Assembly: GCA_965200315.1 (NCBI GenBank)
Contig: OZ241362.1
Span: forward strand, 1,280,001 to 1,344,000
Length of the DNA: 64,000 bases
DNA from: Candidatus Latescibacterota bacterium
Lineage (GTDB): Bacteria; Latescibacterota; UBA2968; UBA8231
Direction of reading: 5' to 3'
The notes under the pieces are model-generated. The model was not told the DNA's origin and searched no databases. It saw only the letters and a list, made by a program, of their open reading frames with translations. A program made the translations under genes and the position numbers. The stretch's first letter is position 1, and each line of letters opens with the position of its first letter. This document shows positions 1 to 49,539 of this stretch, piece after piece.

Positions 1-1940
1 CAGCCGTTGTTGTTCAAATCAATGCCAAAGAGAAACTCGGGCCGATCGACCTCGTAGCGCAGAAAAGGTTCATCGTAGTCCGGGAAGAAGTTTTGCCGCT
101 CGCCGTTGCTGTTTTGGTTGAAATCGGAAAGGAAATCCCCGTTTTCGTCGTACCCGGGAAAAACCGCTGGATCGGCCACGCCGTTGGCCCGGACCCGAAA
201 CGTCTGCCCCGGAATGGGAATCAAACTGCCCTGAAAGCGGCGCAACTGATCGGGGTGCCGGTCGTTGTCGTCGTTGTCATCGACAAAATCGTAGGACTGG
301 ATGATGGCTTCGGGCGAGTAGTCGACCAAGCCGCGGCCATCCACCGGCCGCACGTTGGTGCTGTATCCGTCGTCCATGCCGAAGCCTTCGAGAAAAAAGT
401 GCCAAGGGCCGATACTCCGCGCCAAGTTGACCATGTAGGCCACGTCGTGTTGGTCTCCGACAATGCCGGCAATGGCTTTGTGCTTCTTTAGGGTCGTCGT
501 GGGATACTTGCGATAGCGGGTGCTGATGTTGAACTCTCCATAAAAGTCAAACCCAAACCAATCGCGCATCTCAGCAGTAACGCCGTATATCTGGCTCGCG
601 GTAGGCAACCCGTAGTCAAAGGCCACCTTTTGTTGGTTGAGGCGGTTCTTGATGTTGCCCGCTGCTCGTGCGACCAGTAGAAATTGCGGCTGATCCACCG
701 GATTGGTCTGCCGATCAGACGCCACCTCCACCCGGTAGTCGTTGGCCAGAATGAGCCGGAAGCGCACCTTCTTGATCGCGGTCACCGCATCCTCGGCCTC
801 GGCCAAGCTCATTCCCAAGCTCTGCTGCAATAGCAGGCGCAAGGTCCCAGCTTCGTCATCCCCGTCTTCGACCGCCAGCGGATATTTGAGCGTTATGCTC
901 TCGGACCCGTCGGCCGTGAGGAAGCCGTCGCGCACCTTGCCCCCTTCGCGCAATGGTCGGTAGCCAATGCTGCTGCCGGTGATGACCGTATCCCGCGGCA
1001 CCAACGCCACGCTGTCGCCTGCGGCCACCTCGCGCATCAGGGTCGTGGTGATCTCCACGTCATCGCTGAAGAGCACGGCCCCTCCCTCGCCGTCTTCAGG
1101 CGAATCGTCGGACAGCCTCACCACCAGTAATTCGAGCCGCCGGTCTAACTGGCCCGAGGTCAGCAAGCCCGTAAAGGGGCTCTCTTGAAAGCTCTCCAAG
1201 GCTCCGTTGTTGCTGTGGGAATTGACAAAGGTCGTGCCCAGAGTTAGGTGATCGCCGATATCGGCCTCAAAGCGAAGTGCGGATAGATTCGTCGCGTTTT
1301 CTAGCTGTCGGGTCGGAAAATCCGCGCTAATGTCGATGATCGGCGACGAGATTCGCGAAAACAGCCCGGTCGCCCGCAAGCGCTGGGTAGCCAAACTAGT
1401 CACCACACCATTGAAACCCGTCTTGCGGAAAGTCAGGGGCGTCAGCGTCGTAAAAAGCTCGTCCCCGACTACAATCGAATAGCTGTAGTCGCCACTGGTA
1501 TCCGAGGAGATGATGAGGCGGTTGAACCAGCTTAGGTACTCGCCGCGCTTGGTAACTTGATTGCTGGCACTGGTCAGCGGCTGGGTCTGCCGCCAATCGT
1601 AGATGAGCCAGCCTCGGGTGATCAAATCGCCGTAGGGATCGTAAAAATAGAACCCCTCTTGGCTACGCGACACGTAGCGGAGAAAAGGCTCCCGCGCATA
1701 GTTGGTGTACTGCCACTGGCGGCGGCCGTACTCGGTGAACAACTCCTGCGGCAAGTACCAGCGCTGAATGGTAGGGTCCAGCGCGTCAATGAGCACCGAC
1801 CGGCCCGCGGCTGAGAACACGCGGCGCTCGTCGACCCGGCGGCCGAGGCGATTGCCGTAGTCTATCTGGGCACCAACCTCAAGGGCACACACAACCACTG
1901 CACCCAAGAGCAACGCGTACTTAGCCTGCAGCGCACCCAT
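1..1940 (-). CDS. Large secreted/outer-membrane hypothetical protein, paralog of 1940-4723; 3' end runs off the window (missing from ORF track)
   Basis: ATG at 1940 overlaps the upstream stop (TAATG). My manual translation MGALQAKYALLLGAVVVCALEVGAQIDYGNRLGRR...LDPTIQRWYLPQELFTEYGRRQWQYTNY...FPDYDEPFLRYEVDRPEFLFGIDLNNNG stays open to the edge and is colinear with the 927-aa protein. Confidence 0.85.
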   Translation of the reverse strand, partial: MGALQAKYALLLGAVVVCALEVGAQIDYGNRLGRRVDERRVFSAAGRSVLIDALDPTIQRWYLPQELFTEYGRRQWQYTNYAREPFLRYVSRSQEGFYFYDPYGDLITRGWLIYDWRQTQPLTSASNQVTKRGEYLSWFNRLIISSDTSGDYSYSIVVGDELFTTLTPLTFRKTGFNGVVTSLATQRLRATGLFSRISSPIIDISADFPTRQLENATNLSALRFEADIGDHLTLGTTFVNSHSNNGALESFQESPFTGLLTSGQLDRRLELLVVRLSDDSPEDGEGGAVLFSDDVEITTTLMREVAAGDSVALVPRDTVITGSSIGYRPLREGGKVRDGFLTADGSESITLKYPLAVEDGDDEAGTLRLLLQQSLGMSLAEAEDAVTAIKKVRFRLILANDYRVEVASDRQTNPVDQPQFLLVARAAGNIKNRLNQQKVAFDYGLPTASQIYGVTAEMRDWFGFDFYGEFNISTRYRKYPTTTLKKHKAIAGIVGDQHDVAYMVNLARSIGPWHFFLEGFGMDDGYSTNVRPVDGRGLVDYSPEAIIQSYDFVDDNDDNDRHPDQLRRFQGSLIPIPGQTFRVRANGVADPAVFPGYDENGDFLSDFNQNSNGERQNFFPDYDEPFLRYEVDRPEFLFGIDLNNNG

Positions 1941-4723
1941 TACTGAATTCCGGCGTACACGGTGATGAAGCTAGTCGTCGAATTGCTGCTCTCGCTGCCC
2001 TTGGCAAAGCCGCTGTCGTCCTCTAGCACCAGTTCGGTCTGGGTGCGCCCGTAGCGCAGACCAATCTGCGTCGTCAGGCGATACCCCATGTAATCCGAGG
2101 AATTGGATAGCTGCACCGCTACGTTTACACTGCTCAAGTCGCCCGTTTCCATAGTGATGCCTTTGGCGACCATTTCATCCTCATCGCTCATCAAATCCCT
2201 CAGCAGCTGCTGCTCTACCCCCCCCATCAGCACAGTGTGCTTCAGCATCGGCAGCCGGGCCAGCAGCACAAAGCTGCCGGTCCACTCCTTGCGCTCATCC
2301 TCTTGGACCAAAAACGGCGTACGCCGCAAGTATTCGCTCTTGAACTTGGGCTGCAGGCTGAAGCGGCCTACATCGTAGGTGTAGTCGAATTTGTTGATCA
2401 AGCCGAAGAAGCTCGTGTTGGCCCGCAGGCGGCGCCCGTCTATATCGCGTGGGTCGTTTTGGTTTTGGCGATAGAATTCGTACTTGAACTTGTTGATGAT
2501 GTTGAGCCGGTCGATGCCCGCGTAGTCGAACCCGAGAAACAGCGCATTGACCCAAGTGTCTTGGGCTGGCAGAATGTCCGGGACGAGGGGCTGGATGGCC
2601 GGGGCATCGACATAAGGCGTGGGGGCGCGCCGGTCGTCGGGGATGGTATCGGCGACCTTTTTCAGCGCGTCAAAAACCTGCAAGCGGCCTACGCCGGGCA
2701 CGTCGCGGTCAAAGGTAAAGAGCGCGTACTGGACGCGGCTCGAGCGATCGGCCGAAATCATCTGCTCGTCCGCCTGCCCCAAGGTCAACCGCGTCCCTGG
2801 TACGAGCTCGGCCCCGGCGAACACATTGTAGCCTTGCCGGTCGGTCTTGTAGGGGTAATCCGGCAAGTCGTCGTCTTCAAAGCGGTCGATCCAATCGTTG
2901 TTGTTCAGATCGATGCCAAAGAGGAATTCGGGCCGATCAACCGCATAGCGCAAAAAAGGCTCGTCATAGTCGGGAATGAAGTTGTTGACCGTGCCATTGT
3001 CGTTTTGGTTGAAATCCGAGATAAAATCGTTGTTCTCGTCCCACCCGGGAAAGATGAGCCGGTCGTTGGCCGAACCCGCGCGGATCCAGTCGGGATATTG
3101 GTCTTGATCGTCGTTATCCTCGACGAACTCGTAGAAGTTGCGCTGGGAATTGTCGTATTGAATGTCGCCATTGGTATCTACCAAAAAAGCTGTGGTCGAA
3201 TACGCGTCGTCCATCGCATAGACCTCGCCGAAGAAGAACCACGGATGGAACTGACGGGAGAGGTTAAAAAACCAAGCGTCGGACTGCTCGGTGGAAATTT
3301 TGTGGTTCTTGCCCGCCGTAAACAGCGCGGCGTTGGGATACTGATAGTAGCGCTTGTTACGGTCCCACTCTCCGTAGAAGTCAACCCCCCACAGCCCCTT
3401 ACCCTCCACTGTAAATCCACCCACTAGGTTGCCCGTCGGCAGGCCGTAGTCAAATTTGACGAGCTGGAGATTGGAAATGTCCTTCACGTTGCCTTCGGCT
3501 CGCCGCAGGGTAATCAGCGCTGGCTCGGTGGCGTCTATGGTTTCCGCACTCAGGGGCGCAGAAGGCATGGCGCGGCGGCCCGTCTGCCGGTCAGACCACA
3601 TCTCCACCTTGAAGTCATTGCCCAAGACATATTCAAATTCCACGGCCACGATCGAGGTGGGGTCTGGGCCGATGTACGCCGGGTCGTTGAAGTCGTAATT
3701 AAGCACGATGCGCTCGTACCCGTCGGCGGCCGTGTACCCTTGGCGCTCAAAACCGCCGAATTTAATCGGCCACTCCGCGCCGGCACGGACGACCTCTTCC
3801 GCCTCGAAAACCTGCTCTTTGTTCGTCTCGAAGTCGCGGCTGATGATGCGCACCTTGTCGCGGAACAAAGCTGCGCCTCCCTCGCCATCCTCGGGCGTGT
3901 CGTCGCTGAGAATGATGGCAATGGCCGTCAGCGGGGTGCTGCTCTGGCCGGAAGTGAGGCTGCCAGCGATCAAATCGCCGCTGAACAGGTCGAGCGTGGT
4001 ATTGGTATTGCGGGCATCAACTACGGTCGCGCCCACCTCAATGAAGTCGCCGATCTGGACCGTGCCGCGGCCGCCGAACATGGTAGTGGTATTGGTGCGG
4101 GTTTCCGGCTCTCTGGTCTCGCCCAAGATCGGGTCGCTGATCCGCGAGGCGAGGATCGTGCCGGCGTATTTGTCGGCCATGAAGTCGATCTGGACGCCAT
4201 TGTAACGGGGTCTAGAGAAGGTCATGGGCGTGAGGGTCGTGCGTAGCAGATTGCCCACTGTAATGGAATAGTAGTATTGGCTCTGCGAGTCGCCGCCAAT
4301 GGTGACCCCGTTGAACCAAGAGTCGAAGCGGGCGTTTTGGAAGATGCTGCTGCCGAGCTGCCCGGGCTGATTTTGGCTCCAGTCGTAGATCAGCCAGCCG
4401 CGGCCGATGAAGTTGCCGTAGAAGTCGTAGAAGTAATCGCCTTCGCGGTGGATGTTGACGTAGCGCCTAAACTCATCCTTAGCGTAGTTGGAGTATTCCC
4501 ACTGCCGCCAGCCGTATTCATTAAAAAGCTCTTGGGGAATGTACCATTTCTTGACTGCTGGATCGAGCGCGCCAAACAGGACCCCGGGGCCGCGCGGCTC
4601 AAAGCTGACTGCCCCGCCGCGCTGGCGACCCAAGCGGTTGCCGTACTCTTGGGCTTCAGCCGTTCCGACCGCCAGCACCAACGCGGCCCAACCAATCAGC
4701 CCCCACATTCTAAACACTTGCAA
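1940..4723 (-). CDS. 927-aa secreted hypothetical protein, probable outer-membrane beta-barrel with acidic Ca-binding-like loops
   Basis: Signal peptide (..GTAEA|QEY); alternating-pattern beta-strand-like segments; C-terminus FITVYAGIQ; DNDDQD, DENNDF and DLNNNDWID motifs. Confidence 0.75.
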   Translation of the reverse strand: MQVFRMWGLIGWAALVLAVGTAEAQEYGNRLGRQRGGAVSFEPRGPGVLFGALDPAVKKWYIPQELFNEYGWRQWEYSNYAKDEFRRYVNIHREGDYFYDFYGNFIGRGWLIYDWSQNQPGQLGSSIFQNARFDSWFNGVTIGGDSQSQYYYSITVGNLLRTTLTPMTFSRPRYNGVQIDFMADKYAGTILASRISDPILGETREPETRTNTTTMFGGRGTVQIGDFIEVGATVVDARNTNTTLDLFSGDLIAGSLTSGQSSTPLTAIAIILSDDTPEDGEGGAALFRDKVRIISRDFETNKEQVFEAEEVVRAGAEWPIKFGGFERQGYTAADGYERIVLNYDFNDPAYIGPDPTSIVAVEFEYVLGNDFKVEMWSDRQTGRRAMPSAPLSAETIDATEPALITLRRAEGNVKDISNLQLVKFDYGLPTGNLVGGFTVEGKGLWGVDFYGEWDRNKRYYQYPNAALFTAGKNHKISTEQSDAWFFNLSRQFHPWFFFGEVYAMDDAYSTTAFLVDTNGDIQYDNSQRNFYEFVEDNDDQDQYPDWIRAGSANDRLIFPGWDENNDFISDFNQNDNGTVNNFIPDYDEPFLRYAVDRPEFLFGIDLNNNDWIDRFEDDDLPDYPYKTDRQGYNVFAGAELVPGTRLTLGQADEQMISADRSSRVQYALFTFDRDVPGVGRLQVFDALKKVADTIPDDRRAPTPYVDAPAIQPLVPDILPAQDTWVNALFLGFDYAGIDRLNIINKFKYEFYRQNQNDPRDIDGRRLRANTSFFGLINKFDYTYDVGRFSLQPKFKSEYLRRTPFLVQEDERKEWTGSFVLLARLPMLKHTVLMGGVEQQLLRDLMSDEDEMVAKGITMETGDLSSVNVAVQLSNSSDYMGYRLTTQIGLRYGRTQTELVLEDDSGFAKGSESSNSTTSFITVYAGIQ

Positions 4724-4752
4724 ATCATCTCTCCCTAAAATTTGTTGAGCAA

Positions 4753-7008
4753 TTAGTACGCCACCCCAACAACCCCGATTTCCCTCACTTGGCCCGTACC
4801 TGCTTGCAGGGAGACGCTAAAAGCATAGTGCCCCGGTGGCACGTACACGCCGTCGTCGTCCCGCCCATCCCAAGGCTGGGCAAAGCGGCCGCTGATGGCC
4901 TCGCTATCGACTAAGGCCCGGACCAGGCGGCCGGACAGATCGAAAATCGAGACTTCCACCGGCGAGGGCCGCGCGATATTGGTGATGTCGTACTGGATGA
5001 GAACGCGGTCGTTGGCCCCGTCGCCGTTGGGCGTAAATACGGGCGAATTCACGGCCACATTGGCCAAGAGTTCTTTGCTGATGGGCACGGCCACCGAAAG
5101 GTTTTCATCTATCGGCGTACCCACCGGCTGGAGGTCGGAGTCGGCAAAGCCAGACAGGCTCAAGTCGGCCGCATTGCCGGCCACAACGCCCTGCCCGATG
5201 GTCGTTTCGACCGAGCGGTTGAAGGCGCGGCCAACAAAGGTCGTGCCAAAGCGCAGCACCCCATTGTCAAACTCCACCTCCAAGACCGTCCCGTCCTCTT
5301 CTATGAGCGGAAAAGAAATGACAAAGCGGTCATCGTGTACTTCATCGATAGAGATGCTATTGCTGGCTTGGGGCAAATTTGCCAACGACGCGCCGGAAAA
5401 ATCCGCCTCTTGCACCGCGCCGCCGGGCCGCTGGATCCGCACGCGCCCGATGGCCTCGACGCGCAAAGGGGTCTCTATCTCAAAGGCGTCAAACCCGCGC
5501 TGCTGACCAGAGGACTTGTTGAGTACCGCGTACAGAAACCGAGTGTTCTTCCCCACGGCCGCCGAGCGCGGCGAGATCTCGGCAATCAACTCTTGGGCAA
5601 AGGGCGGCGAAATCACGTCAAAAGCCAAGCCGCCAACAACGGCTGCGGACTCAAAGTCGTCGCTAAAAAAATCAATGGAAAACTGGAAGTAGCGCCGGGG
5701 GCCAGGCGAGGTAATGGGGACGCCAGCACCGTCTATTGAGATCTGGTCTTGGCCGACGATGCCGGCCGCCAAATAGGGAGGTGACCAGCCGCTCCAGTTG
5801 TTGACATCGTCGCGGATACCCCCTTTGTCCTCGCCCCGCAGCGCGCTGTAACCGGCCTCGTCGAGGGTGACGAGAGCTTGCTGGTCCAGCGGCAAATCCT
5901 TGAACACCCCAAGTGCCTCGCGCACATCTACTTCGTCGTTGTCCAGCACGTCTTCGACCAAGGTTTTTAGAGCCTCATCGTCTACATCCTCGGCCCTCTT
6001 CCACGGCACCTCCACATTGGCCGTCGAGGTGCCGGACCGATTGCCGGCTTGGGCACCGCCGCCCACGCGGAAGATGCGCTCGCCCGGGCGGACCTTGTTG
6101 AATTCGACCGGGTTGGAATCCACGCCCGTGCGTGTGCGAATCTGCAAGCTAGACAGGTTTGCGTCGCCTTCCGCGTCTTGGATCCAACGCAAATTGCCGA
6201 ACAGGGCCAAGTCGCCAAAGTCGAAAATGTTGGACACATAGCTCGCTTCGGGCACAAAGCCCGTGCCGAAAATCTGGAACTCGGCCATGTCGAAACCGGC
6301 CGCAGTCAGAACCTTCAGCCGCACGAACCGCACGTATTGCGGCGGGATGCGCACGTCCACCACGGATAAGTCGTTTTGGGTCTCGACCGCGACAGTTTGC
6401 AAAATCGGTACGCCTTCAAAGGAGTTTTCCGGCGTACCGTCATTGATAAAAATCTCATATCCCCGCAAAAATTCGTTTTGGAAGGGAAATTCTACCGAGG
6501 GAAAACCTGGGTCGCCGTTGCGCGGAAAGAATTTGAAGCGGTTGAGGCCAAAGCGAGCGCCGAGATCCAAGTCGATGATCAGTCCCAGTACTCGGGCGCT
6601 TTGGGTGCCCCCAGAAGCGCGCATGTCCAAAGCCGTGTCGCCATCGTCGTCGATCAAATTGGCCAAAGCCGCGCTAATGGAGCGATTGTTCGGCGACTCA
6701 ATGCTGCCGCCGCGCAACGGCGAGTTAATGCCGACCGCTATGTTGCGGGTGGTATCGGCGCGCTGGGGCGCGATGAAGTGGGGCCGGTTCTCGGGATCAA
6801 AGTCGATAACGCCTCCAGGGGCGTTGGTTTTTTCGATCGCCGTCGCGCTGCGGATGACCACGGCTGGGAGATCGCCTCCACCGCTTTCCCAACTCAAGCC
6901 CTCTTCACCGCCAATGATTAAGACTTCCGCAACCGCTAATTTTCCCATCGCGAAAGCGGCGAGCAAGACGCCGCCTACGAAGCAAGCAAATCGAGAAGCT
7001 GTTCGCAT
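4753..7008 (-). CDS. Secreted protein with discoidin-like region and C-terminal FlgD-Ig/T9SS type B-like domain
   Basis: Signal peptide; IDLDLGARFGLNRFKFFPR; C-terminal VFTPNGDGAND...IFDLSGRLVR...WDGRDDDG..VPPGHY. Confidence 0.8.
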   Translation of the reverse strand: MRTASRFACFVGGVLLAAFAMGKLAVAEVLIIGGEEGLSWESGGGDLPAVVIRSATAIEKTNAPGGVIDFDPENRPHFIAPQRADTTRNIAVGINSPLRGGSIESPNNRSISAALANLIDDDGDTALDMRASGGTQSARVLGLIIDLDLGARFGLNRFKFFPRNGDPGFPSVEFPFQNEFLRGYEIFINDGTPENSFEGVPILQTVAVETQNDLSVVDVRIPPQYVRFVRLKVLTAAGFDMAEFQIFGTGFVPEASYVSNIFDFGDLALFGNLRWIQDAEGDANLSSLQIRTRTGVDSNPVEFNKVRPGERIFRVGGGAQAGNRSGTSTANVEVPWKRAEDVDDEALKTLVEDVLDNDEVDVREALGVFKDLPLDQQALVTLDEAGYSALRGEDKGGIRDDVNNWSGWSPPYLAAGIVGQDQISIDGAGVPITSPGPRRYFQFSIDFFSDDFESAAVVGGLAFDVISPPFAQELIAEISPRSAAVGKNTRFLYAVLNKSSGQQRGFDAFEIETPLRVEAIGRVRIQRPGGAVQEADFSGASLANLPQASNSISIDEVHDDRFVISFPLIEEDGTVLEVEFDNGVLRFGTTFVGRAFNRSVETTIGQGVVAGNAADLSLSGFADSDLQPVGTPIDENLSVAVPISKELLANVAVNSPVFTPNGDGANDRVLIQYDITNIARPSPVEVSIFDLSGRLVRALVDSEAISGRFAQPWDGRDDDGVYVPPGHYAFSVSLQAGTGQVREIGVVGVAY

Positions 7009-7148
7009 AAACCAACTCTAATAGGGTAGTGAACGTAGAGCATTCCACAGCACTAACGCCCGCTGCATTGTTGCCCAAAAATCCGTCAAATCCTACATTA
7101 ACTGCCCGTTAAATAAGCGAATAGTACCCACTAGAGCAAGAATTTTCA

Positions 7149-8840
7149 ATGACCGCGACCCAGCCTTTTATCCGCCCGTTCCTGTGTCTCGCAGCCCTTT
7201 TCCTCGCGTCCTGCACCAGCCAACCCGACCAGCCCGAAGCGCGCGATGTCGTCTTGGCGACCGTAGCCGGCAGCCCCATCACCCTCGCCGCCTTCACCGA
7301 GTTTAGCGCACTCATCCCAGCGGGCATGAAAAAGGGCGATACCCCGCTCGCCAAGAACCGCCAAGTCCTCAACAGCTTGATCGACAAGCGACTTTTGCTC
7401 ACCGAGGCCGAGGCCCTTCAGCTAGCCGCCGACCCCGCGCTCCAAGCCGAGCTGGCCTTTTTCACCCAAAACCTCTTGCTCGACTTGTACACCCATCGCG
7501 AAATTTCCCAAAAGATTGCAGTGTCAGACGAAGAGCTGGAAGCGCACTATCGCGCCACGCACCGCGACCGCGCCCTCCGCTTTAGCGGCATCATGCTAGA
7601 GACCCGCGAAGAAGCCGAGGAAGTTTTGCAGGCCGTGGCCGACGGGGCCCAGTTCATGGAGCTGGCCAAGGGGCGTTCTCTGCACCGCGACAGCGGCGAG
7701 CAGGGCGGCGACGTGGGGGGCTACAAGCTCAAGGACAAGGTCCTGCCGGCCATTGCCGAAGCGATCTTCCCCCTCGCCGTGGGCGAGGTATCCGAACCCA
7801 TTCGCTTCCAGTTTGCCGGCAAGCCCCACTACACGGTCTTTCAGGTCACCGATGAGATGCCGCTGCCCCTTGCCGCTTCCGAGCACAAGGTGCGGGAGGA
7901 AGTTTTTGGCCGCAAGCGGGCCGCCCGCTACCAAGCCCTCCTCGACTCGCTCAAAGGGGCGTACGGCCCCGAGCTACGCCCCGAGCCGATCCGCGCCCTC
8001 AACCAGCACAGCCGGCAGGCCGAAGGCGATCTGTACGCCCTGCCGGCCGCAGTGCGCGACGAGCCGCTCGTCTCCTTTCGCGGCGGCCAAATCAGTGGCC
8101 ACGAGTTCATGCAGATGGCGCGGCAAATGCGCGCCGGCCGGCCGGAACTGGCCGACTCCGCTCGCGTCGTCTTTCTCCTCGAAACCGCGATCATTCCGGC
8201 CTTCCTCTTTGCCGCCGAGGCCCGGGGCCACGGCCTAGAACAAGACCCCCACCTCCAGCAGCGCGTCCGCGACAAGCGAGACGACCTGCTCCTCAACGCC
8301 CTGCGGCAGCGCTACGTCGATCAGCACATCACAGCCACCCCAGAAGAAGCCCGCGCCTTCTACGACAGGCACCCGGAAAAATTCACCGCGCCGCTGACGA
8401 CCGAAGTGGTAGAAATTCTCGCGTCTTCCGACTCGTTGGCCCAGCGGCTCAAGCGCACACTCCTCGCCGGGGCCGACCCCGCGCCTTTGGCTCGCGCCCA
8501 CACCCTCCGCCCCGGGGCCGACCACCACGACGGGCACCTGACCCTCAGCCCCTACACCAAGGCGTACTATCAGGGCATCTACGACTTGGCGCATTCTCTG
8601 CCCGTCGGCCAAGTCGGCGGCCCCGTGCAGGTGCAGGGTGGATACTCGGTCTTCAAGGTCCTCGACCGCCATCAGAAAAAGCATCCCTACGACGCCACAT
8701 CCCGTCGCCGCGCCACGGCTTACATCAAGATCGACAAGTCCAAGCGCGGCTACGTGCGCTATGTGCGCGGCCTGCGCGAGCAGCACCCGGTTGAGGAGTT
8801 TGCAGACGCAATAGAACGCGCCCTCGGCGCACCTAATTGA
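7149..8840 (+). CDS. PpiC-type peptidyl-prolyl isomerase lipoprotein (SurA/PrsA-like, two rotamase-like domains)
   Basis: Lipobox FLASC; LNSLIDKRLLL SurA-N-like helix; FMELAKGRSLHRDSGEQGGDVG; second GQVGGPVQVQGGYSVFKV. Confidence 0.8.
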   Translation: MTATQPFIRPFLCLAALFLASCTSQPDQPEARDVVLATVAGSPITLAAFTEFSALIPAGMKKGDTPLAKNRQVLNSLIDKRLLLTEAEALQLAADPALQAELAFFTQNLLLDLYTHREISQKIAVSDEELEAHYRATHRDRALRFSGIMLETREEAEEVLQAVADGAQFMELAKGRSLHRDSGEQGGDVGGYKLKDKVLPAIAEAIFPLAVGEVSEPIRFQFAGKPHYTVFQVTDEMPLPLAASEHKVREEVFGRKRAARYQALLDSLKGAYGPELRPEPIRALNQHSRQAEGDLYALPAAVRDEPLVSFRGGQISGHEFMQMARQMRAGRPELADSARVVFLLETAIIPAFLFAAEARGHGLEQDPHLQQRVRDKRDDLLLNALRQRYVDQHITATPEEARAFYDRHPEKFTAPLTTEVVEILASSDSLAQRLKRTLLAGADPAPLARAHTLRPGADHHDGHLTLSPYTKAYYQGIYDLAHSLPVGQVGGPVQVQGGYSVFKVLDRHQKKHPYDATSRRRATAYIKIDKSKRGYVRYVRGLREQHPVEEFADAIERALGAPN

Positions 8841-10291
8841 AATTGCGCTGGGCCGTGCTCCTGCTCTTGTTGCTCGCTTGGGGCTGCGCCCGCGACGACC
8901 TCCTTCTCGCCGAGGGCCAGCAGCACTTCTACAATCGAGAGTACCAAGCCGCGATTGAGGTCTTGCAGCGAGCCGTACAACGCCCGTCTCCATCGCGAGT
9001 CGCCTATCGCTATCTAGGACGTTGCTACCTCCAAGTCGGTCAGTACGAACAAGCGCGGAAAACAGTGCGCACCGGCCTAGCCCTATCCCCCAACGACCCG
9101 GAACTCTACGACCTGCTCGGTGCCATTGAGATGACCCGCGCATTCGCCGAGGCCCGCTACAGCGATACCGACGCGGCCCTGCACGCCTTCCAACGGGCCA
9201 TTGAACTCGACCCGCATCGCGCCACCACCCACTACAACCTCGGCCTCGTGTATAGCTACCGCGACAGCGCACACCGCGCCGAGCGCACGTATCTGGCCGC
9301 CTTGCGGGTGGATTCCACACTCGCGCCAGCCCACAAGAAGCTGGGCCTGTACTACCGACGACAAGGTGCTTTAGAACAAGCCCTAAGTCACCTACAACGC
9401 GCCGTGCAGTACGCGCCAGAAGACGCCGAAGCGCATTTCCACCGCGGCTTGCTGCTCCGCGCTCAAGGGCACTACGACCAAGCCGTAGAGGCCCTAGAGC
9501 GGGCCGCCGCGCTCAACCCCTATTCGCCCCAAGTCCACTTCAATCTGTCCCAACTCTATTTGCGCACCGGGCAGCGCGAACAGGGAAAAAGAGCCTTGGC
9601 GCGCTCGGAAATCCTCCGTCAGCACCACCGGGGCATCGGCTCGGAGCAATCCCCGCCCGAGGTGGGCGCGGTGGCCATCGGCTCGGCCACGGCCCGCTAC
9701 AACCTCGCCCTGCATCTCGCCCTGCAAGGCCATTACGACCAAGCCATCCTCGAATATCAAAACGCCCTCGCCATCAACCCGGAACTAAAAGACGCGCACA
9801 GCAGCCTAGGCGTCCTCTTCACCTATCAGGGCGATCTAGTCGCCGCAGCCGCGAGCTTTCGCCAAGCCCTCGCCCTCGACAAAGAAGACCCGCTCAGCCA
9901 CGCTCGGCTGGGAATGACTCTCCTCAAGCAGCAACTCTATGAGGAGGCTCGGGCCAGCCTTTGGCGCGCCGCCGCACTCGACTCTAGCTTGCACGAGGCC
10001 GCCTACGGACTCGGCTTGGCCGCGGCTCGCACGGGCGATTTGGCCGCGGCTATCGTCCACTTTGACGAGGCGGCCCGGCTCAGCCCCACTAGCGCCTCAG
10101 CCCAGTTAAACCTCGGGGTGGCATACGCGAAATTGGACAAATTCGACGAGGCCGCCCGCGCCTATGCCCGTGCCGTCGAGTTGGATCCAGCCAATGACCG
10201 CGCCCATCTCTACCTCAGCGACGCATACCAACAATTGGGACACCTGCAAAAAAGCCGAGCACACCGCGAAAAGGCGCGGCAGCTACCGTAG
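8837..10291 (+). CDS. TPR-repeat lipoprotein
   Basis: LAWGC lipobox-like sequence; many TPR units (HYNLGLVY, AHFHRGLLL, AQLNLGVAY); start overlaps upstream stop. Confidence 0.9.
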   Translation: MKLRWAVLLLLLLAWGCARDDLLLAEGQQHFYNREYQAAIEVLQRAVQRPSPSRVAYRYLGRCYLQVGQYEQARKTVRTGLALSPNDPELYDLLGAIEMTRAFAEARYSDTDAALHAFQRAIELDPHRATTHYNLGLVYSYRDSAHRAERTYLAALRVDSTLAPAHKKLGLYYRRQGALEQALSHLQRAVQYAPEDAEAHFHRGLLLRAQGHYDQAVEALERAAALNPYSPQVHFNLSQLYLRTGQREQGKRALARSEILRQHHRGIGSEQSPPEVGAVAIGSATARYNLALHLALQGHYDQAILEYQNALAINPELKDAHSSLGVLFTYQGDLVAAAASFRQALALDKEDPLSHARLGMTLLKQQLYEEARASLWRAAALDSSLHEAAYGLGLAAARTGDLAAAIVHFDEAARLSPTSASAQLNLGVAYAKLDKFDEAARAYARAVELDPANDRAHLYLSDAYQQLGHLQKSRAHREKARQLP

Positions 10292-10295
10292 TCCC

Positions 10296-12200
10296 GTGTC
10301 GTATCAATGCACCCTCTACTGGGCGGCCTGCTACCTTGCGATGGCCCTCCCAGCTCACGCGCTCACCATCTATCGCATCGGCGGGGCCGACTTGCCCAAA
10401 CCGGAGTTGGAAGCCGAGTACGAATTCGTGCAGCTATCGTGGGAAGCCGTCGATCCCAACCAGCACGGCTTGGCCCAATGGATCGCGCTGCAGCCAGAAC
10501 GCATCGGTCCATTGTCGCTAACGCCCTCGGTCAACTTGGCACCACTCGTGGAGTCCCTCGGTGGCCGCATCCTCATCTTAGAGTGGAACGGCTGGCGGGA
10601 GTGGTACGAAGACGACATCCTGATCTTCGACGGCGACCCGGAAACCGCTTATCTGGGAGATGGGCGCTATCTCCGCGTCGTCGGCTATGGGCCCCAGCGC
10701 AAGTACTGGGTCTTCGACTTTGGGGGGCGGTTTTTCGTCGATCGCGTACGCTTTTACCCGCGCCCGCGCTTTGCGGCGACCCGCTTTGTCGAGAGCTTCA
10801 TCTTGGGTACCAGCGACGGGGATCCCCTCACTGACGGCACCCGCGAGTACGCGGTTAGCTGGCGCAACAGCACACTCGACTTCGACATCGTCCACCGCGT
10901 ACGCGAGAACACCCAAGCTGTCATGGAGTTGGCCCTGCCCGATGAACCCATTCAGCAGGTGTTCATCGAGCTACCCGAAAACAGCCGCGGCATCTGGGAA
11001 ATCGCCGAGTTCGAGATCTACGGCACCGGACCGGCCGCCTTTTCCCGCTACACATCCAATATCATCGACTTGGGCCGACCGGCCGCCTTGGGCGCATTGA
11101 CTTGGGACGGCCACGTCGACGCTGAGGCCCGCATTGAGCTAAGTGTACGCACGGGCGACGACGACGACCCCAACACCTATTGGCGACGTACGTTCCGCGG
11201 CACTGAGCTTACCCGCTTCGACGCCGCTGGCCAGCCGCTTACCTTGGGGACGTACAACCGCCTACAAAAGGGCGAGCAGGCCGGCCTTTCCCCAGACATT
11301 GAGGACTGGAACTTCTGGAACGCGCCCTTTGCCTTTGCCGCAGGTCGCGGGCCAATGCCGGTCGATCAGCTGCGCCGCTACGCGCAATTTAGGGCCGAAT
11401 TCCACTCGACCGCCGAGGCCACCGGCCACCTCGCGTACTTGCAATTCAGTGCGTCCATCCCACCACCGGCCTCCCAAGCCCTCGGGCAAATCCACCCGCT
11501 GCAAGTCCCCGCCCTGACCCCGACACTCTTTACCTTCTGCCTAGAGCCGCATATCGCAGCCGACGACCTCGGATTCGACCACCTAGCCATCGCCACCACC
11601 GCACAGGTGCAGGCCGTGCAGGCCGTGCGGGTCGGCGGGGTGGATGTCGCCTATACTATCGCACAGCACCCGGCCGAGGGGTTTGAAGTCGCGCTGCCGC
11701 GCATGGACCAGCAGCGGACCAGCGAGCAGGTCGAGGTCGATTTCCGCGCCGAGGTATTCGCGTACAGCACTCGCTTTGCAGGGCGAATCCGCGACAGCAC
11801 CCGCCCGTTTGAAGTCGCCCAGCCCGTAACCCCAAAGGCGACCAACAGCCTGCAGGTGGCTTTACTCAGCCTAGACCAGCCACTCATCGGCCGCCTCACC
11901 CTGCACCCGGCGATATTCACCCCCAACGGCGACGGCCGCAACGACGCCGTGCGGATTGAATACGACCTCCTGTATATAGTGGATGCGATTCAAGTGGAAC
12001 TTGTGGTCTTCGACCTCGCCGGCCGCACGGTGGGGGTCATCCACGCCGGGCCTGCCACTAGTGGCCGCTTTGTGGTCGAGTGGGACGGCCGCACCCCCAG
12101 CGGGCACCTCGTGCCGCCGGGGTCCTACCTCGTCCGCCTCATCGCAGAAACCGACCGCGGCCAACAGCAACGCCAAAGCCTCGTCTCGGTCGTCTATTGA
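10296..12200 (+). CDS. Secreted FlgD-Ig/T9SS type B-like CTD protein, paralog of 4753-7008
   Basis: Likely GTG start just after the TPR stop, giving a signal peptide (LPAHA|LTIY); shares FDFGGRFFVDRVRFYPR, AEFEIYGTG, SNIIDLG and IFTPNGDGRND...WDGR..VPPGSY with the paralog. Confidence 0.8.
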   Translation: MSYQCTLYWAACYLAMALPAHALTIYRIGGADLPKPELEAEYEFVQLSWEAVDPNQHGLAQWIALQPERIGPLSLTPSVNLAPLVESLGGRILILEWNGWREWYEDDILIFDGDPETAYLGDGRYLRVVGYGPQRKYWVFDFGGRFFVDRVRFYPRPRFAATRFVESFILGTSDGDPLTDGTREYAVSWRNSTLDFDIVHRVRENTQAVMELALPDEPIQQVFIELPENSRGIWEIAEFEIYGTGPAAFSRYTSNIIDLGRPAALGALTWDGHVDAEARIELSVRTGDDDDPNTYWRRTFRGTELTRFDAAGQPLTLGTYNRLQKGEQAGLSPDIEDWNFWNAPFAFAAGRGPMPVDQLRRYAQFRAEFHSTAEATGHLAYLQFSASIPPPASQALGQIHPLQVPALTPTLFTFCLEPHIAADDLGFDHLAIATTAQVQAVQAVRVGGVDVAYTIAQHPAEGFEVALPRMDQQRTSEQVEVDFRAEVFAYSTRFAGRIRDSTRPFEVAQPVTPKATNSLQVALLSLDQPLIGRLTLHPAIFTPNGDGRNDAVRIEYDLLYIVDAIQVELVVFDLAGRTVGVIHAGPATSGRFVVEWDGRTPSGHLVPPGSYLVRLIAETDRGQQQRQSLVSVVY

Positions 12201-16120: not shown

Positions 16121-19100
16121 TCACATATACGACAGAAAGTGCCCGGTCTCGCCCAGTACGCCGTCGATACACAGCCACAATCCGGCCGCGGTCGCCTCGC
16201 CCAAAATCAACCCTAAGAAGAAGGGCTTGGCCCGCTCGTAGAGCGGCATCCCACCCCACTTGACAATGACCAGCTTGAGCGCCCACGCGATGAACACCGA
16301 AAACCACACCTGATTAGCCAGCCAGCCCACGCTGACGATAAACCCCAGCGGGTGCAGCGGCCACCAGTAAAACCGATGATGTCCCCACAACAGCACGGCC
16401 TCGACGAGGCCACCGATGCCAGTAAACAACCAACCGCGCCCGTCGGCTGGCAGCGGATCGACGATCGGCCGCGCCATGTCGGTAAACGTGCGCGTGGCCT
16501 GATGGGTCATAAAAAACGGATGCAAATTGATCCCACCGTACTCATAGCACACCTGAAAAATGATCCACGTCGCCCCGGCCAAACTCACCACCAACGCCAG
16601 CGCCATCCCCCAAAACAGCCGCCTTTTAGAGCCAACCACCGCCTCGGCCAGCTTGAGCGAATTGGCCGCGGCAATCAGCGGAAAGAGCCGCATCTCGGAC
16701 TGCCAGACGTAGGTAAAGGTCAGGGCCGTCAGCCCCTTGGCCCCAATCACCGGTGCGCCAACAGCGGAAATGACGAAAAACGCCGCCACCATCGGCGAGC
16801 GCGCCGTCGCTAGCCCGGCCGTGGCCACCGCCCGCGTGACGAACACGTAGAAGATCAAGCACACCAGCAAAAACAGCGGCAAAACCGCCAGCGGCACCCC
16901 GGACGCCCACAGCCAGACGCCCACGAAGAGCAGGCTGGCCAAAAAGCCAAAGACCGCCACCCGATAGGAAAGCATTTCCCCGGCATCATCCACCGCTGGG
17001 TCGCCGCGCCACGCCTTGCGCCACACCGCCCCTAGATGACGCCGCCCCATCCACAAGGTGTAGCCGACAAAAATCAGACAGGCCCCCATCACCTCGTGCG
17101 TCAGGTCCGCAGTCTGCGAGTAGGAGTAGAGACTCAGCTTTTCGCGGCTGGCAATGCCCAACGAGGCAAATAGCCCCTCTTGCGCCTTGTTGAAGACGTA
17201 GAAAAACCAAATCGAAAAGGAAATGTCGAGGTTGACCAAATAGAAAAAGCCGATCCACGAATACACCCAAGTCAAATGCAGGGACGTCCCTTGGCCGATC
17301 CACGACAGGACCCCAGCCGACTGGATCGGCTTAGGCACCGCCGGGAAGTAGTAGTGCAGCCCCTTGAGCGACAGCAACGCGAACGGCACTGCGAAGCCGA
17401 TCCACAACAGCCGCTGCTTAAAAAGCGGCGTCAGCTTAAACCCCGGCCGGCCCTCCTCCACCATCTTGAGCGGCAGTTGCACCATGGGATAGGCCAGCCG
17501 CTCGTGCTGCGACCACTGCCGGTGCAGAATGGAACTCATGCAGAGCATCATAAAGCTCAGCACCAAAAAGAACACGTACCAATAGCTCAGCGTCTCGGTC
17601 CAAGCCCCCCACGGAATGCCCTCCCCAAGCGGCAGCCCCTCGTGCAAATCGACAATGGCCTGCCGGTCCTGCGGCACCAGCCACGGCGTCACGTGCGAAA
17701 AGAAAATTTCGGCCCAGTTGTTTTCCGGGGTCGCGTAGTAGTACAGCCCGCTGATGATCGGAATTAGGTAGCCGACAAACGCCTGCGTTGGCACGGCCGA
17801 CGCCAACAGCATCATCGCATAAATGAGCACTAAATCGGCCCGCCCCAAGGCGAGGCCGCGGCCCAGTGCCCGCAGCAGGGTATTGACCACCACCACCAAA
17901 ACGAAAAACAGAAAGATCGCCCCGGGCGACGAGCTGTTGAGTGCCATGTACGACCCTTGCAGCATAATTATCGCGTAGGGTGCGCCCACGCCGATGCCCA
18001 AGGCCAACAGGCCCCCCACGGCAAATCCCCGCCAAGTAAAGGACGCGGCCTGTTCCACTGCCGACTGCTCCTCTGTGCGCTCCGCGGTCTGCTCGGCCGC
18101 CAGTGCGCGCGCCGACTCCACGTGCTGGACGCGCTCGGACTCACGCAGCGCGTACCAAATCAACATCTGCTTCCGCAGAGCCTCCACCAGCCGCAGGTTG
18201 AGCCGCTGCCAGTAGTGATGCTCGCCGCTTAACCGGCGCAGCCTGACTCCCATCGCCCGCGCCCGCTGTCCAGCCGGCGCGAACTCCACGACCACCTCTT
18301 GGCTCACCCCCAAGTCGAACGGGGCCAGCCACAGCGCAAACGAGAGGCGATAGCCGTCGGCCTGCGTAACGTGCATATCTTCGACGTAAAAATCCCCCAG
18401 CGTCGCCCGGCCAAAGGCCCCAAAGTAGTTGGCCAAAAAGCCGCACACCCCCTCGACCTCTCCCTCGCCGAGCATGAAGGGGAACTCAAACAACCACTCG
18501 TCGCCGCTGGGCGGGTCCGGCCGCCAGCGCCGTACCACGTCTGGCACGGCCTGCCGCGCCGCCTGCCGCGCCGGATAGATCGTCGATAGCAACACCACCC
18601 CCATCACCGCCAGCGCAGCCCCAATCGCCGCCAGCGACGAGTAGTTCAAGGTAATGCCCTGCAACAGCCCCAACGCCAACAGCACCCGCCCCAACCCCTG
18701 GCCCAGCAAGTAGCCCAACGTCGTCCCCAGCACCGCATAGACGCAGGCTTCGGCCACAAACAGCAGCGCGATGTGCAAGGGGGCCAGCCCCACCGAAGAG
18801 TAGATGCCAATCTCGCGCAGGCGTTCGTACACCGCCCCCATCATCGCATTGAGCACAATGAGCGCGGCCACCAGCGCGGGAATCGCCAGCGCCCCCAGCC
18901 CTTTCACGGCCGTCAGCCCCACTGAACTCAGAGCGGTCACCCTCCCGTCCGGCGAGCCGACAAACAAGGTGGCCGCCACCCTCGTCAGATAATCCTCGAC
19001 CAGCCCCTGCCCGTCGGTCGCCCCCGGAAAGCGCACGGCCACCGAGCGCAAGCTGCCCCCGGCCTCGGCCAGCGTTTGATAGGGCACGAGGACCACGTGG

Positions 19101-22100
19101 TGTGGCTCTAGGTGGATGAAGGGCCGGAGTTCGCGTGGATCCTCCTCGCCGGCAATATCCACGTCCTGCGCCGCCCCTAGCTGGAGCACCTCTGCGCCCG
19201 ATAGGACAAAATCGGCCGGCATCAGGCTCTCGTCGTCGAGGTCGCGCAGTTCACCCAACTGCTCTGGATCGGCAATCCCGCGCACCTCCAGCGCACGTCC
19301 AAACACCTCGATCCGGTCCCCAACCCCAATACCCAAAGCCGCGGCCATGTCCAACGGCAGGATGCAGGTAGCCTCGTCATCCGCGGTAAAAAACGATCCG
19401 GCCACCAAACTCTTATCTACCGCGGTGATTTGCGCTTCCTCCGGCGTCAGGCCCAACAAGCCCGTAGCCCGCACCGCCTTCCCCGCCGCGGCCACCGCAA
19501 TCCAGCTCCCCTTGCCGCCTTCGGCCGCGTACCAACCGCGCCGCCCCATCCAGCCGCTGCCGCCAAAGTGCGATTCGGCGTAGTCGAGCGCTTCCGGCGT
19601 CAGGCGCTCCCAGCCGCGATCGCGGATGAGGATCCCAGGGTACGCCCCGGCGTGGGGCAGCCGGAAACTCGCGTAGCGGATTTGCTGTTCAAACGAGGTA
19701 AACGAGAGCAGGGTAAACGTCAAAAGCGTCAGGGTCGCCAGCGTCAGACCAGTGCGCAACGGCCGCCGCCGCATGTTGGAAATCCCCAGCATGAAGGCCG
19801 CATAACTCGCGCTCAAGCGGCTCAGATCCTCGGCGTGGACCCGTGTCTGCTGGCTCTGGTGCTGGGCCATGACGCGGTTGAACCGACCTACCAGCATACA
19901 GAGCACCAAGGCCGCCATCGCCATGATAGCAAACGCCAACAGCACCACCAGCGGCTCGGCCAGCTCAAAGGCCGGATGCACCTGCGCCAAAATCAGCCAA
20001 ATCGCCAGCAATAACAGCCCAAAGCCAGCGAGCTGCCGGCGAATATCGGCCGCGGCAAACAAGAGCCGCTCCCCTAAAAAGGCGGCCGGCAACAACAGCG
20101 CCATAAAGAAAATCACCCCTTCGAGGACGTCGTTGAGCGTCGCCAAGACCTCTGGATAGGCCCGCGTCTCCAAGCCCAGCGCCTTGCGGCTCCACGCCAC
20201 GTACTCATCCCACTTTAGCTGCTCGGCCGCTGATTCCGCTTCGGCTATGGCCGCGGCCGCCTGCTCGTGTAGGCGCGTCAACCGCTGATTTTCAATGCCG
20301 TGCTCCTTGAGCATCCCCAGCCGCACCTCATCCAAGTTCCACACGTCTCGCGCCGCCTGTAGCGTCGCAGCCCCAAATCCCTCTTCGGTCAGCAAAAACC
20401 CCGCACCCCGCGCCTCGCTCTCGCTTTGGCTGCCCTCGCTGTTGAGCAGCAAAAGTTGGCCGTCCAAAATCACTTTGACGCGATCGTCGGCCGCAGCATC
20501 AGCCGGCCCGTAGATTACCCCCACCGAGCCGATGCTGCTCTTACCTAAGGAGTACCCGTACTGACCCGGTTCGCCCTCGTCCGCCGACAGCACTTTTACT
20601 TTGGTCAACGCGCGTAAAAAGCGCGGCTCGACCAAGCCGTACAAGGGCCGACCCACTCCGGGAAAGAGCACGGCGATCTGCTCGTTTTGCAGCCAGCGCA
20701 CATTCTTGGCCAAGCGGCCATCTGACCTCGGTTTCCCGTGGTGCGCTTGCGCACGGGTGCTCAAATCCACGACGTGGGTAATCGCCCCCCGCTCGGCGTC
20801 TAGCGCCGCCACCGCCAGTGGATACGTCCCCTGCACCAGCCCGGGGACCCGCGCCACCCCGATGGCATCCGTGAGAAAGTAGCGCGTGTTACGCACTCCT
20901 TTGCGCTCTTCCTCCTCCACCTGTACCGCCACCAGCGCCCCAGCCACCGGCCGGTCTGGCACCTGACTGCGCCGGGGGAAGGTCCGCGCTTTGACCCGCA
21001 AATCCCGCAGCCGATCTTCCAACGCCGCCGCGAGCCGCTCGCGCCCAGCCAACAGCACTGTATCGGCCAACGCATAAGCCAGCAGATCGGCCACCAACGC
21101 CGCCTGCTTCTCCACATTATCCCACGCCACGCGCTCGCCCGTGTCCTGCGGCAAATCCAGCGCAAAACGGGCGTCGCCTACCGTAGCCAGCGTCAGCGAC
21201 GGGAATCCCGCTTCGAGCACCAACTCCCCGTCCGCGGCCAAACCCCCGGGCATGTAGCTATCCCAATCCATCCCCCGAATTGGGCTGATGCCATTGGCCA
21301 CGGCCTCGGCGCGGCCTAGTGCCTCCGCGTACTCGGCAAAGCGACGGCCAAAGGGCACGAAAAACCGCTTGAGCGCGTAGCTATCCGTGTTGTTCCACAG
21401 CACCACCCGCTCGCCGTGGCTGGACAAATCGAGACCAATGAACAGGCCGATATCCAGCGGCTCGGCGAGCCGGGCCGCGTAGTGCTCTTGGCGGCGAGCG
21501 TGCCGGTCGAGAAAGGCGACCATGCCCTGCCGCCCCAAGAAGTGGGCCCCTAGCGCGGCGAGTACCACCGTGTGCGCTGGCGGGTTCGCTTGCAAGCGAG
21601 CAGCCACCTCCAACAGCACCGCTACACTCACGGCCGCCTCGGCTCCTGGTGCCCGCGCTGGCACCACGGATGGCGCGTCGTAATACGCATGGACGAGCAC
21701 GGTCTCGTCCCGCAAAGTCCCCGCATGCCGCCCCGGCACCACGGCCCACACGTTGTACGCCATCCGCTCCTGCCAATCCATCCGCCCCCACAGCTCCACC
21801 TCCACTTCTCCACCCACCAACCGCCGCCGCAACCGCTCTCCAGCGGTCCTCTCCACCCAAAACCGCGGCACATCCAACGGCGCCCGCACGTACTTGCCCT
21901 GCGCCTGCTGCGTGGTAGCTGAATCCGCCGCCACAAACACCACCGCCCGTGCTCCCAACGACGCGGCCTTCAGCCAATTGTCCCCACTGGCAAAGTCCAG
22001 CAGCACCACCCGCCCAGCCACCTCCTGCCCATTAAAATCGCCCCAATCCCCATCGCCGCCCCAAATCGCCGGGATCCGCAACCCCTCCGGCGGCACGGTC

Positions 22101-49488: not shown

Positions 49489-49539
49489 GAAAATTCTCCT
49501 CAGTTAGTGGTTAGTAGAAGCGTCCCACGAGGGTTGCCC

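Follow-up and report, generated by a model that had tools for sequence, protein, structure and literature searches.

Paired large barrel proteins and secreted proteins with type IX secretion-like C-terminal domains in a conserved multicopy gene set of Latescibacterota

Secreted proteins whose C-terminal domain (CTD) is of type B in the T9SS (type IX secretion system) depend on, and bind, a cognate PorP/SprF barrel encoded next to them, as described in excerpts of two papers (PMC9143113; PMC12618676), and the T9SS may occur in further phyla of the Fibrobacterota-Chlorobiota-Bacteroidota (FCB) superphylum, Gemmatimonadetes included, according to an excerpt of a third (PMC11285876). Among very large outer-membrane barrels, SlpA of Deinococcus radiodurans is described in part of another report as a barrel of 30 strands whose lumen is lined by insertions that bind metal and as a homotrimeric housekeeping tether (PMC9388160). 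Examined here is a locus at the start of a 64,000-nucleotide stretch of DNA from a "Candidatus Latescibacterota" bacterium (GenBank assembly GCA_965200315.1, contig OZ241362.1, positions 1,280,001 to 1,344,000 of the forward strand; this whole stretch is referred to as the window). The locus encodes two large barrel-type paralogs (B1 and B2), secreted proteins of one family that is termed the cargo family (C; the member next to B1 is C1), a PpiC-type peptidyl-prolyl isomerase (PPIase) lipoprotein, and a tetratricopeptide repeat (TPR) lipoprotein. It is one copy of a conserved, multicopy cell-envelope gene set of Latescibacterota and of metagenome-assembled genomes (MAGs) labeled Gemmatimonadota. 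The reading favored here, tentatively and at somewhat less than even confidence, is that the barrels are a cognate receiver or anchor complex for T9SS-like CTD proteins and that together they would form a lineage-specific surface complex.

Alignment of B1 with B2 over 656 positions (E = 2e-152) gave 275 identities (42%). An earlier note on this DNA had described them as translationally coupled paralogs with common sequence blocks, and all six blocks were contained in the alignment (YGNRLGR, LDPxxxxWYxPQELFxEYG, RGWLIYDW, LSDDxPEDGEGGA, FDYGLPT, and PDYDEPFLRYxVDRPEFLFGIDLNNN). The coupling was borne out as well: the B1 stop and the B2 start share one base (TAATG at 1940), and this overlap is kept in orthologous loci, such as the related locus L002 (10001-12784 and 12784-15735), where the second gene supplies a full-length B2 ortholog of 983 amino acids (aa). 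B1 lies downstream of C1 at a spacing of 29 nucleotides (nt), and signal peptides were found on both barrel proteins. Neither paralog could be placed in a family by the earlier note, and the searches agree with it. B1, the B2 fragment within the window, and the full-length B2 ortholog had zero Pfam or NCBIfam matches at E ≤ 0.01, which leaves unmatched the models for PorP_SprF, Plug and TonB_dep_Rec, SprA/Sov, LptD, fimbrial ushers, SlpA_C, and the SLH domain; neither a coiled coil nor a recognizable TonB box was detected in B1 or B2. The same scan did detect a true TonB-dependent receptor elsewhere in the window (49540-51804; Plug, 1.4e-16). Against the sequences of the PDB, a phmmer search with B1 gave no real match and a profile of 57 family members found no SlpA chain at E ≤ 10; these searches returned just a nanobody and a restriction enzyme subunit (E > 0.03), which were taken as chance. 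Relatives of the barrels numbered 902 in a word-indexed search, and an exhaustive search with clustering at 50% yielded 743 representatives, of which 512 had E ≤ 1e-10. All named entries were "hypothetical protein," with the labels Latescibacteria or Gemmatimonadetes and one distant cluster labeled Ignavibacteria/Bacteroidota. Of the ESM Atlas clusters to which a Pfam family is assigned, the nearest (score, 0.89) pointed to DUF6029, which hmmscan did not confirm and which is retained as a lead only.

The barrel-like nature that the earlier note had proposed is supported by structure prediction. An AlphaFold2 model of B1, built on the 57-sequence family alignment, had a predicted local distance difference test score (pLDDT) of 80.9 and a predicted template modeling score (pTM) of 0.78, with 369 residues at a pLDDT of ≥90. 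The model contained approximately 28 long beta strands between residues 140 and 925 (counted from the DSSP line; range, 26 to 30). Residues 20 to 92, which are conserved, were modeled with low confidence, and a 90-residue insertion rich in Asp and Asn (residues ~536 to 628) holds most of the invariant residues of the barrel family. When the model was compared with the PDB by Foldseek, all listed matches at E ≤ 0.001 were outer-membrane barrels. The best was Deinococcus SlpA (8ae1_A; E = 4.4e-7; TM score, 0.25), and the others included LptD, the ushers FimD and PapC, MtrB, SprA (8gl8_A; E = 2e-4; TM score, 0.25), and smaller porins, with query-normalized TM scores of 0.14 to 0.25 throughout. 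Because the matches were barrels only and none exceeded a TM score of 0.25, the predicted fold class of B1, an outer-membrane barrel, is clear, but no close structural relative was found. Among 38 distant members of the barrel family, the Pfam SlpA_C model matched 11 below its threshold (best, 30.2 bits versus a cutoff of 35), at barrel strands corresponding to residues ~410 to 515 of the window barrel.

C1, the secreted CTD protein downstream of which the earlier note had placed the paralogs, has a signal peptide and a C-terminus reading ...VFTPNGDGANDRV...QPWDGRDDDG..., and its C-terminal domain (residues ~657 to 751) scored above the Pfam gathering score of 27 with both FlgD_ig (32.0 bits) and CHU_C (30.2 bits). 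The second cargo-family protein of the window is 27% identical to C1 (E = 1e-42) and reached 38.5 bits with FlgD_ig and 26.6 bits, under the gathering score, with CHU_C; the two downstream C proteins of L002 each gave 27.1 bits with CHU_C. In a survey of 39 cargo-family proteins (36 of the type encoded upstream of a barrel and 3 others; E ≤ 1e-3), FlgD_ig matched all 39, CHU_C matched 36, and the type B model TIGR04131 matched 28, while the C-terminal part of the PorU sortase model (positions ~1000 to 1080) matched 16 and the type A model TIGR04183 matched 6. On account of these matches, and with the window pair scoring below the type B cutoff (see below), the cargo CTD is designated a T9SS-CTD-like immunoglobulin (Ig) fold leaning to type B, with strict membership not established.

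The AlphaFold2 model of C1 (pLDDT, 88.3; pTM, 0.78) is a chain of stacked beta-sandwich domains, one of them discoidin-like. Its Foldseek matches were galactose oxidases (best), the Fn3 region of the C5a peptidase ScpA, RbmA, and alpha-2-macroglobulins. Galactose oxidase begins with a discoidin domain, and no catalytic core was evident in the C1 model. In the ESM Atlas cluster that scored 0.94 to C1, 70% of the members carried F5_F8_type_C. By Pfam, this domain gave no match in C1 at E ≤ 0.01 and was found in 1 of the 39 family members (1.4e-4). The discoidin-like domain of the cargo proteins is probably sugar binding.

A profile scan of one genome per species returned 489 places with a barrel relative, and the best 80 of these gave 78 loci from 43 assemblies (64 loci labeled Latescibacterota and 14 labeled Gemmatimonadota). 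Open reading frames (ORFs) were called and clustered, and presence was counted over 79 sources, that is, the 78 loci and the first 25 kb of the window. The barrel was present in all 79 and a cargo gene in 78, followed by PpiC (61), a secreted protein of ~310 aa without family, termed U (49), FG-GAP/ASPIC proteins, which were frequent and not universal (26), the TPR type of the window lipoprotein (T1; 24), DUF6785/DUF6784 membrane proteins (20), and two further TPR types (T2 in 15 and T3 in 12). Since the loci are mutually related, these counts describe conservation and not independent events. Up to six loci per assembly were found among the 78 kept. The barrels closest to B1 were those of L001, L002, L004, L019, and L035 (95 to 96% identical) and L003 (94%). 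The co-occurrence of barrel genes with FlgD-type CTD genes, for which the reading of the earlier note called, holds across these loci: a cargo gene lay immediately 5' of the first or only barrel gene, on the same strand, in 64 of the 75 cases for which 2.5 kb or more of upstream sequence was available, at a median gap of 17.5 nt. The 11 exceptions were for the most part second barrels with a PpiC gene between them and the first barrel, or loci in which there is an additional barrel.

The gene set had three common arrangements (P denotes PpiC). The window type is C-B-B-T2-U-C-C with divergent P, T1, and C, its part beyond the window edge being taken from L002; the other two are U-C-C-C-B-B-P and C-B-U-C-P-C. 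Loci labeled Gemmatimonadota (L005, L006, L022 to L025, and others, one of them labeled Gemmatimonas phototrophica) interleave with Latescibacterota loci in the barrel tree at 62 to 83% protein identity; either some of the labels given to the MAGs cannot be relied on or both phyla have the locus.

Trees of the barrel and cargo families were made by a fast method. The barrel tree (FastTree) had 60 rows, obtained from 139 full-length sequences dereplicated at 85%, with the truncated window B2 added. It contained two deep clades whose subtrees mirror each other, one of 25 second-gene and 4 singly encoded barrels (support, 99) and one that holds 20 barrels from first genes, 10 encoded singly, and 1 from a second gene (support, 99); the window B2 fell in the second-gene clade (support, 99). 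The gene-position labels required 4 and 3 changes on this tree, versus shuffled means of 16.8 and 19.6. Because first- and second-gene barrels separate into these two mirrored clades, the tandem B1-B2 pair is an old duplication kept in fixed order, and this points to separate roles for the two or to a heteromer. In the cargo tree (78 proteins, from 203 sequences dereplicated at 80%), the proteins encoded directly upstream of a barrel formed a single clade of 29 rows with one change (support, 99).

The ORF map of the window contains two divergent gene groups, C1-B1-B2 on the minus strand and PpiC-TPR-second C on the plus strand (Table 1; ORF starts are approximate). The divergently encoded PpiC lipoprotein, TPR lipoprotein, and second cargo protein that the earlier note had listed are all present, with one start revised: for the second cargo gene, GTG at 10296, which lies 4 nt past the TPR stop at 10291, is the most likely start from the sequence, rather than 10164. 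A scan for promoters and terminators gave nothing beyond chance level; it included a promoter-like site on the minus strand (7149-7121), and the scan as a whole equaled chance (3 found versus a shuffle mean of 3.0).

Table 1. Features at the start of the window (positions within the 64,000-nucleotide stretch)
Feature	Position	Strand	Remarks
B2, barrel paralog	3..1940	-	First 646 aa; gene continues past window start
B1, barrel paralog	1940..4723	-	927 aa; predicted ~28-stranded outer-membrane beta-barrel
C1, cargo-family protein (upstream-of-barrel type)	4753..7008	-	751 aa; signal peptide; FlgD_ig/CHU_C C-terminal domain
Divergent intergenic region	7009..7148		140 bp, between C1-B1-B2 (-) and PpiC-TPR-C (+); ORF map
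PpiC/SurA-like peptidyl-prolyl isomerase lipoprotein	7149..8840	+	563 aa; lipobox LASC
TPR lipoprotein	8837..10291	+	484 aa; lipobox AWGC; 4-nt overlap with PpiC gene end
Second cargo-family protein	10296..12200	+	634 aa from GTG 10296; ORF open from 10164
Two FG-GAP/ASPIC-UnbV proteins	12194-13909, 13837-15654	-	FG-GAP_3, 7.5e-56 and 1.5e-51; UnbV_ASPIC, 2.5e-25 and 5.4e-21
FtsX-like permease + DUF6785 + DUF6784 membrane protein	16121..22480	-	2119 aa; DUF6785, 1.5e-121; DUF6784, 2.6e-28; FtsX, 1.2e-12

The PpiC protein matched Rotamase_2 (1.2e-22; 81.4 bits) and Rotamase (4.3e-14; 53.7 bits) above the Pfam cutoffs, and SurA_N_3 below its cutoff (16.4 bits versus 27.2; E = 0.0084). The TPR lipoprotein matched TPR_11 (4.8e-64) and many other TPR models. 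These generic TPR matches extend to GltE of the myxococcal Glt-type gliding machinery at 107 bits versus a cutoff of 225, and the identification as gliding parts was rejected. The system proved larger than the earlier note had seen, with the addition of U, of membrane TPR proteins (one type with PMT_2), and of DUF6785/DUF6784 proteins. U, which recurs in barrel loci, had no Pfam, NCBIfam, or PDB match, and its 43 relatives are all unnamed. T2 proteins have at least five membrane-spanning segments before the TPR part. T3 proteins are membrane proteins in which PMT_2, a GT-C-type glycosyltransferase, is fused to TPR repeats (for example, L011:569-2374 and L020:5725-7617), and this neighbor hints at periplasmic glycosylation of system parts. 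DUF6785/DUF6784 occurs in related loci as a separate multipass membrane protein of ~660 aa near the barrel genes; the FtsX/DUF6785/DUF6784 protein of the window is an occasional neighbor whose membership in the system is uncertain. Loci of one type repeatedly have as a neighbor a pentapeptide-repeat protein of ~515 aa (Pentapeptide_3, 2e-19 to 1e-35), which was found in 10 of the 79 (for example, L009:4261-5793 and L025:767-2317). Some flanks of related loci carry a sulfatase and a sulfatase-modifying enzyme, and no glycoside hydrolases or lyases were found among the 45 representatives of the accessory clusters.

Several other features of the window were recorded. Four PhyH-family (phytanoyl-CoA dioxygenase-like) genes occur in 20 kb on the minus strand (23933-24814, 32638-33450, 34413-35252, and 43064-43822), interspersed with sugar ATP-binding cassette transporter, epimerase, and oxidoreductase genes, and recur in the flanks of related loci. 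Two tandem paralogs of 826 and 827 aa (24889-29922, minus strand) have a C-terminal CehA/McbA-family metallohydrolase domain (6e-44 and 6e-46) and N-terminal parts of ~430 aa without a family match. The G+C content is 0.47 at 60 to 62 kb versus ~0.62 elsewhere in the window, and the region from 58549 to 62340, which encodes a DNA methylase of 627 aa as well as a Schlafen/AlbA_2 protein and one with a PIN domain, may be an acquired restriction or defense islet.

From gene order and from analogy with type B CTD proteins, we infer that the barrels act as cognate partners of the CTD proteins. All parts of the system would be exported by Sec, as the signal peptides and lipoboxes in their sequences indicate. 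In the periplasm, the PpiC and TPR proteins may keep the large barrels and the multidomain proteins competent for assembly and so help in the assembly of barrels and partners, by analogy with SurA/BamD and with PPI/SprE of the T9SS translocon. The CTD proteins would then cross the outer membrane in a CTD-dependent manner, and the cognate barrel would receive and hold them, as a PorP/SprF barrel does for an adjacent type B CTD protein. The putative outcome is a surface lectin-barrel complex composed of one or two giant barrels, three or four secreted paralogs, PpiC, TPR lipoproteins, membrane TPR proteins, and U. The C-terminal domain of a protein encoded elsewhere in the window (48079-49488, minus strand; 469 aa) scores 29.5 bits with TIGR04183, the curated model for type A (cutoff, 23; FlgD_ig, 1.3e-11), and for this reason T9SS-type sorting by the organism is suggested. 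The statement that the T9SS may occur in further FCB phyla (PMC11285876) agrees with this. As a separate observation, the gene for this protein lies directly downstream of that for the TonB-dependent receptor (CarboxypepD_reg plus Plug), and in the two (48079-51804, minus strand) this genome has another type of pairing between a barrel and a CTD protein.

Several results weigh against the cognate receiver or anchor reading. The pairing of barrel and CTD protein is drawn throughout from gene order and analogy, and a complex prediction for B1 residues 93 to 927 with C1 residues 640 to 751, made with alignments, gave a score of 0.00 and a mark of 0.32, which speaks neither for nor against binding. 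The barrels are not relatives of PorP/SprF, and their size would seem to exceed what an anchor needs; PorP/SprF proteins have about one-third of the size of B1 and B2. TIGR04131 gave the two window cargo proteins 23.9 and 18.5 bits, versus a curated cutoff of 35, and a cargo profile searched against the PDB matched FlgD chains at 5.9e-9 and the PorU CTD at just 0.1; the likeness of these CTDs to FlgD Ig domains is at least as good. Neither PorP_SprF nor other T9SS families were found among the 45 accessory-cluster representatives or in the 38 ORFs of the window that were run against Pfam, although no genome-wide search for the T9SS core was made. The 78 loci are mutually related and biased to close relatives of B1, with distant relatives (24 to 27% identity) lying outside the gene-order set. 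Furthermore, the cargo is not a varied set: it always belongs to one family, of which each locus has three or four paralogs in fixed positions. For this reason, the cargo paralogs resemble constant subunits of a single surface complex more than they do the clients of a secretion pore, and a fixed partner family is as compatible with a fixed hetero-oligomer or with an uptake complex as with "cargo." The type B CTD cargo proposed by the earlier note is accordingly kept in part: C1 reaches the Pfam CHU_C model, whereas the TIGR04131 cutoff is missed and the variety expected of cargo is lacking. Of its translocon, anchor, or receptor pair with dedicated chaperones, the barrel, the lack of a known family, and the co-occurrence stand, and the function is what we infer.

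A glycan capture and import complex, resembling SusCD/RagAB or a polysaccharide utilization locus and working independently of TonB, is a rather unlikely explanation that is not mutually exclusive with the cognate receiver or anchor reading. Here the barrels would form the channel, the CTD proteins that bear the discoidin domain would serve, along with U, as surface binding or lid subunits, and the several divergent loci per genome would correspond to different substrates. The number of divergent loci per assembly, the lectin-like partners in which no catalytic domain was detected, and a barrel of ~28 strands, wide enough for a channel, are consistent with it, as are the FG-GAP/ASPIC and DUF6785/DUF6784 neighbors, the sulfatase genes of some flanks, and the description of Latescibacteria as polysaccharide degraders from genome analysis in part of the genome paper (PMC4454575). 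An importer of this kind must be set against barrels that have neither a Plug domain nor a recognizable TonB box, loci in which glycoside hydrolases or lyases are not conserved neighbors (0 of 45 representatives) and in which no inner-membrane sugar transporter is conserved, and a discoidin assignment that is weak by sequence (F5_F8_type_C in 1 of 39 at E ≤ 1e-3). A TonB-dependent transporter was rejected for want of a Plug domain. Less likely still is an autonomous translocon or usher, in which B1 and B2 would export the three or four Ig-domain paralogs by way of their CTD and build a surface structure independently of the T9SS, with PpiC as the periplasmic chaperone, in the manner of chaperone-usher or two-partner secretion systems and with parts that parallel SprA-PPI-SprE. 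The paralogous subunit sets in fixed positions do recall pilus operons, no T9SS genes were seen in the window or in the scanned flanks, and FimD, PapC, and SprA were among the fold matches, but at query-normalized TM scores of ≤0.25 these reflect generic barrel similarity. The loci also bring their own PPIase and TPR lipoproteins, and SprE is a TPR lipoprotein. The extended T9SS translocon, by the title of PDB entry 8gl8, likewise has PPI and SprE. Neither an energy source nor a plug domain was identified, however, and the curated type A sorting domain of the window protein suggests a general T9SS that could serve the CTD proteins as well. No barrel-subunit fusion was found among proteins of 1624 to 4635 aa, nor any other direct link, which is weak evidence.

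A broader form of the export hypothesis is unlikely to a similar degree. A B1/B2 heteromer of ~28-stranded barrels might, at a low probability, be the pore and platform of a previously unrecognized outer-membrane secretion and assembly pathway of the FCB superphylum. Such a pathway, independent of the T9SS or its evolutionary cousin, would recognize the FlgD/CHU_C-like CTD, export a fixed set of three or four lectin-like subunits, and keep them at the surface, with PPIase, TPR, and glycosyltransferase-TPR proteins as helpers of its own. The least likely alternative, which we regard as improbable, is a structural porin or scaffold like SlpA/OmpM, in which case the barrels would be abundant general proteins and their linkage to CTD genes would reflect a shared envelope-biogenesis operon, with no specific partnership. 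SlpA is the best fold match, sub-threshold SlpA_C matches recur in the distant barrel family members, and both have Asp-rich insertions, the barrel family having invariant Asp and Asn residues across 536 to 628. On the other side, the family profile reached none of the SlpA chains of the PDB, neither an SLH domain nor a coiled coil was detected, and a housekeeping porin is disfavored because each of the several divergent copies per genome has its own codiverging partner genes, which argues for specific pairs. An MtrB-like electron conduit had a rank-20 fold match as its sole support, with no cytochrome genes seen in the loci, and was rejected.

The gene set appears to be undescribed, namely, a barrel with a cognate CTD-tagged surface protein, a new and larger class of barrel, and a helper set of its own. 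No description of it was found in literature that joins Latescibacteria with the T9SS or type IX secretion or in literature on FlgD Ig-like C-terminal domains in outer-membrane secretion, and it is not mentioned in the excerpted part of the Latescibacteria genome paper (PMC4454575). Despite its 743 representatives and, in the loci kept, as many as six copies per genome, the barrel family is unnamed, is covered by neither Pfam nor NCBIfam, and lacks a close solved structure. We know of no cultured, genetically tractable member of the Latescibacterota, and the surface biology of the phylum is, for that reason, known from gene content alone. The gene set offers a concrete system for surface display or uptake in these bacteria and for the use of T9SS-type CTDs outside the Bacteroidota.

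Compared with known systems, the locus resembles chaperone-usher pili (FimD and PapC) in that a single operon brings together a barrel, several Ig-fold subunits that are paralogs, and a chaperone of the periplasm, but it has no Usher or PapD match, its subunits are multidomain proteins of 630 to 750 aa, whereas chaperone-usher pilins have ~150 aa, and its chaperone is a PPIase. SusC/SusD systems (RagAB) likewise have multicopy loci with an outer-membrane barrel and surface glycan-binding proteins; here, no Plug or TonB-dependent receptor signature was found, and the partners are Sec-exported CTD proteins rather than SusD-like lipoproteins. SprA has 36 strands and is encoded by a single gene per genome. 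The SprA/Sov translocon (with PorV, PPI, SkpA, and SprE; a parallel that follows the composition given in the title of entry 8gl8) has in common with the locus a very large barrel that works with substrates bearing a CTD, with a prolyl isomerase, and with a TPR protein, but SprA exceeds 2000 aa (chain length, 2290), no sequence match was found, the TM score was 0.25, and the PPIase here is a lipoprotein of the PpiC/SurA type. SlpA (PDB 8ae1) is also a giant outer-membrane barrel that consists of one chain and has long insertions rich in Asp, from which the present barrels differ in the low TM score (0.25), in having neither SLH domain nor coiled coil, and in occurring as paired paralogs in multicopy loci with dedicated partners.

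By analogy, the gene set works most like the pairs of type B CTD proteins and PorP/SprF barrels, such as SprB-SprF and PG1035-PorP, in which, according to the excerpts cited above (PMC9143113; PMC12618676), a gene for a CHU_C/TIGR04131-like CTD adjoins a barrel gene and the pairs are gene specific and present in multiple copies per genome. It differs in that its barrels fall outside the PorP_SprF family, have 927 to 983 aa and ~28 predicted strands, and often occur as a B1-B2 pair, in that its CTD scores under the TIGR04131 cutoff, and in its host lineage, Latescibacterota/Gemmatimonadota. Should the barrels indeed be cognate receivers of the CTD proteins, or pores for them, the principle known from PorP/SprF would be widened to a class of barrel that is unrelated and much larger.

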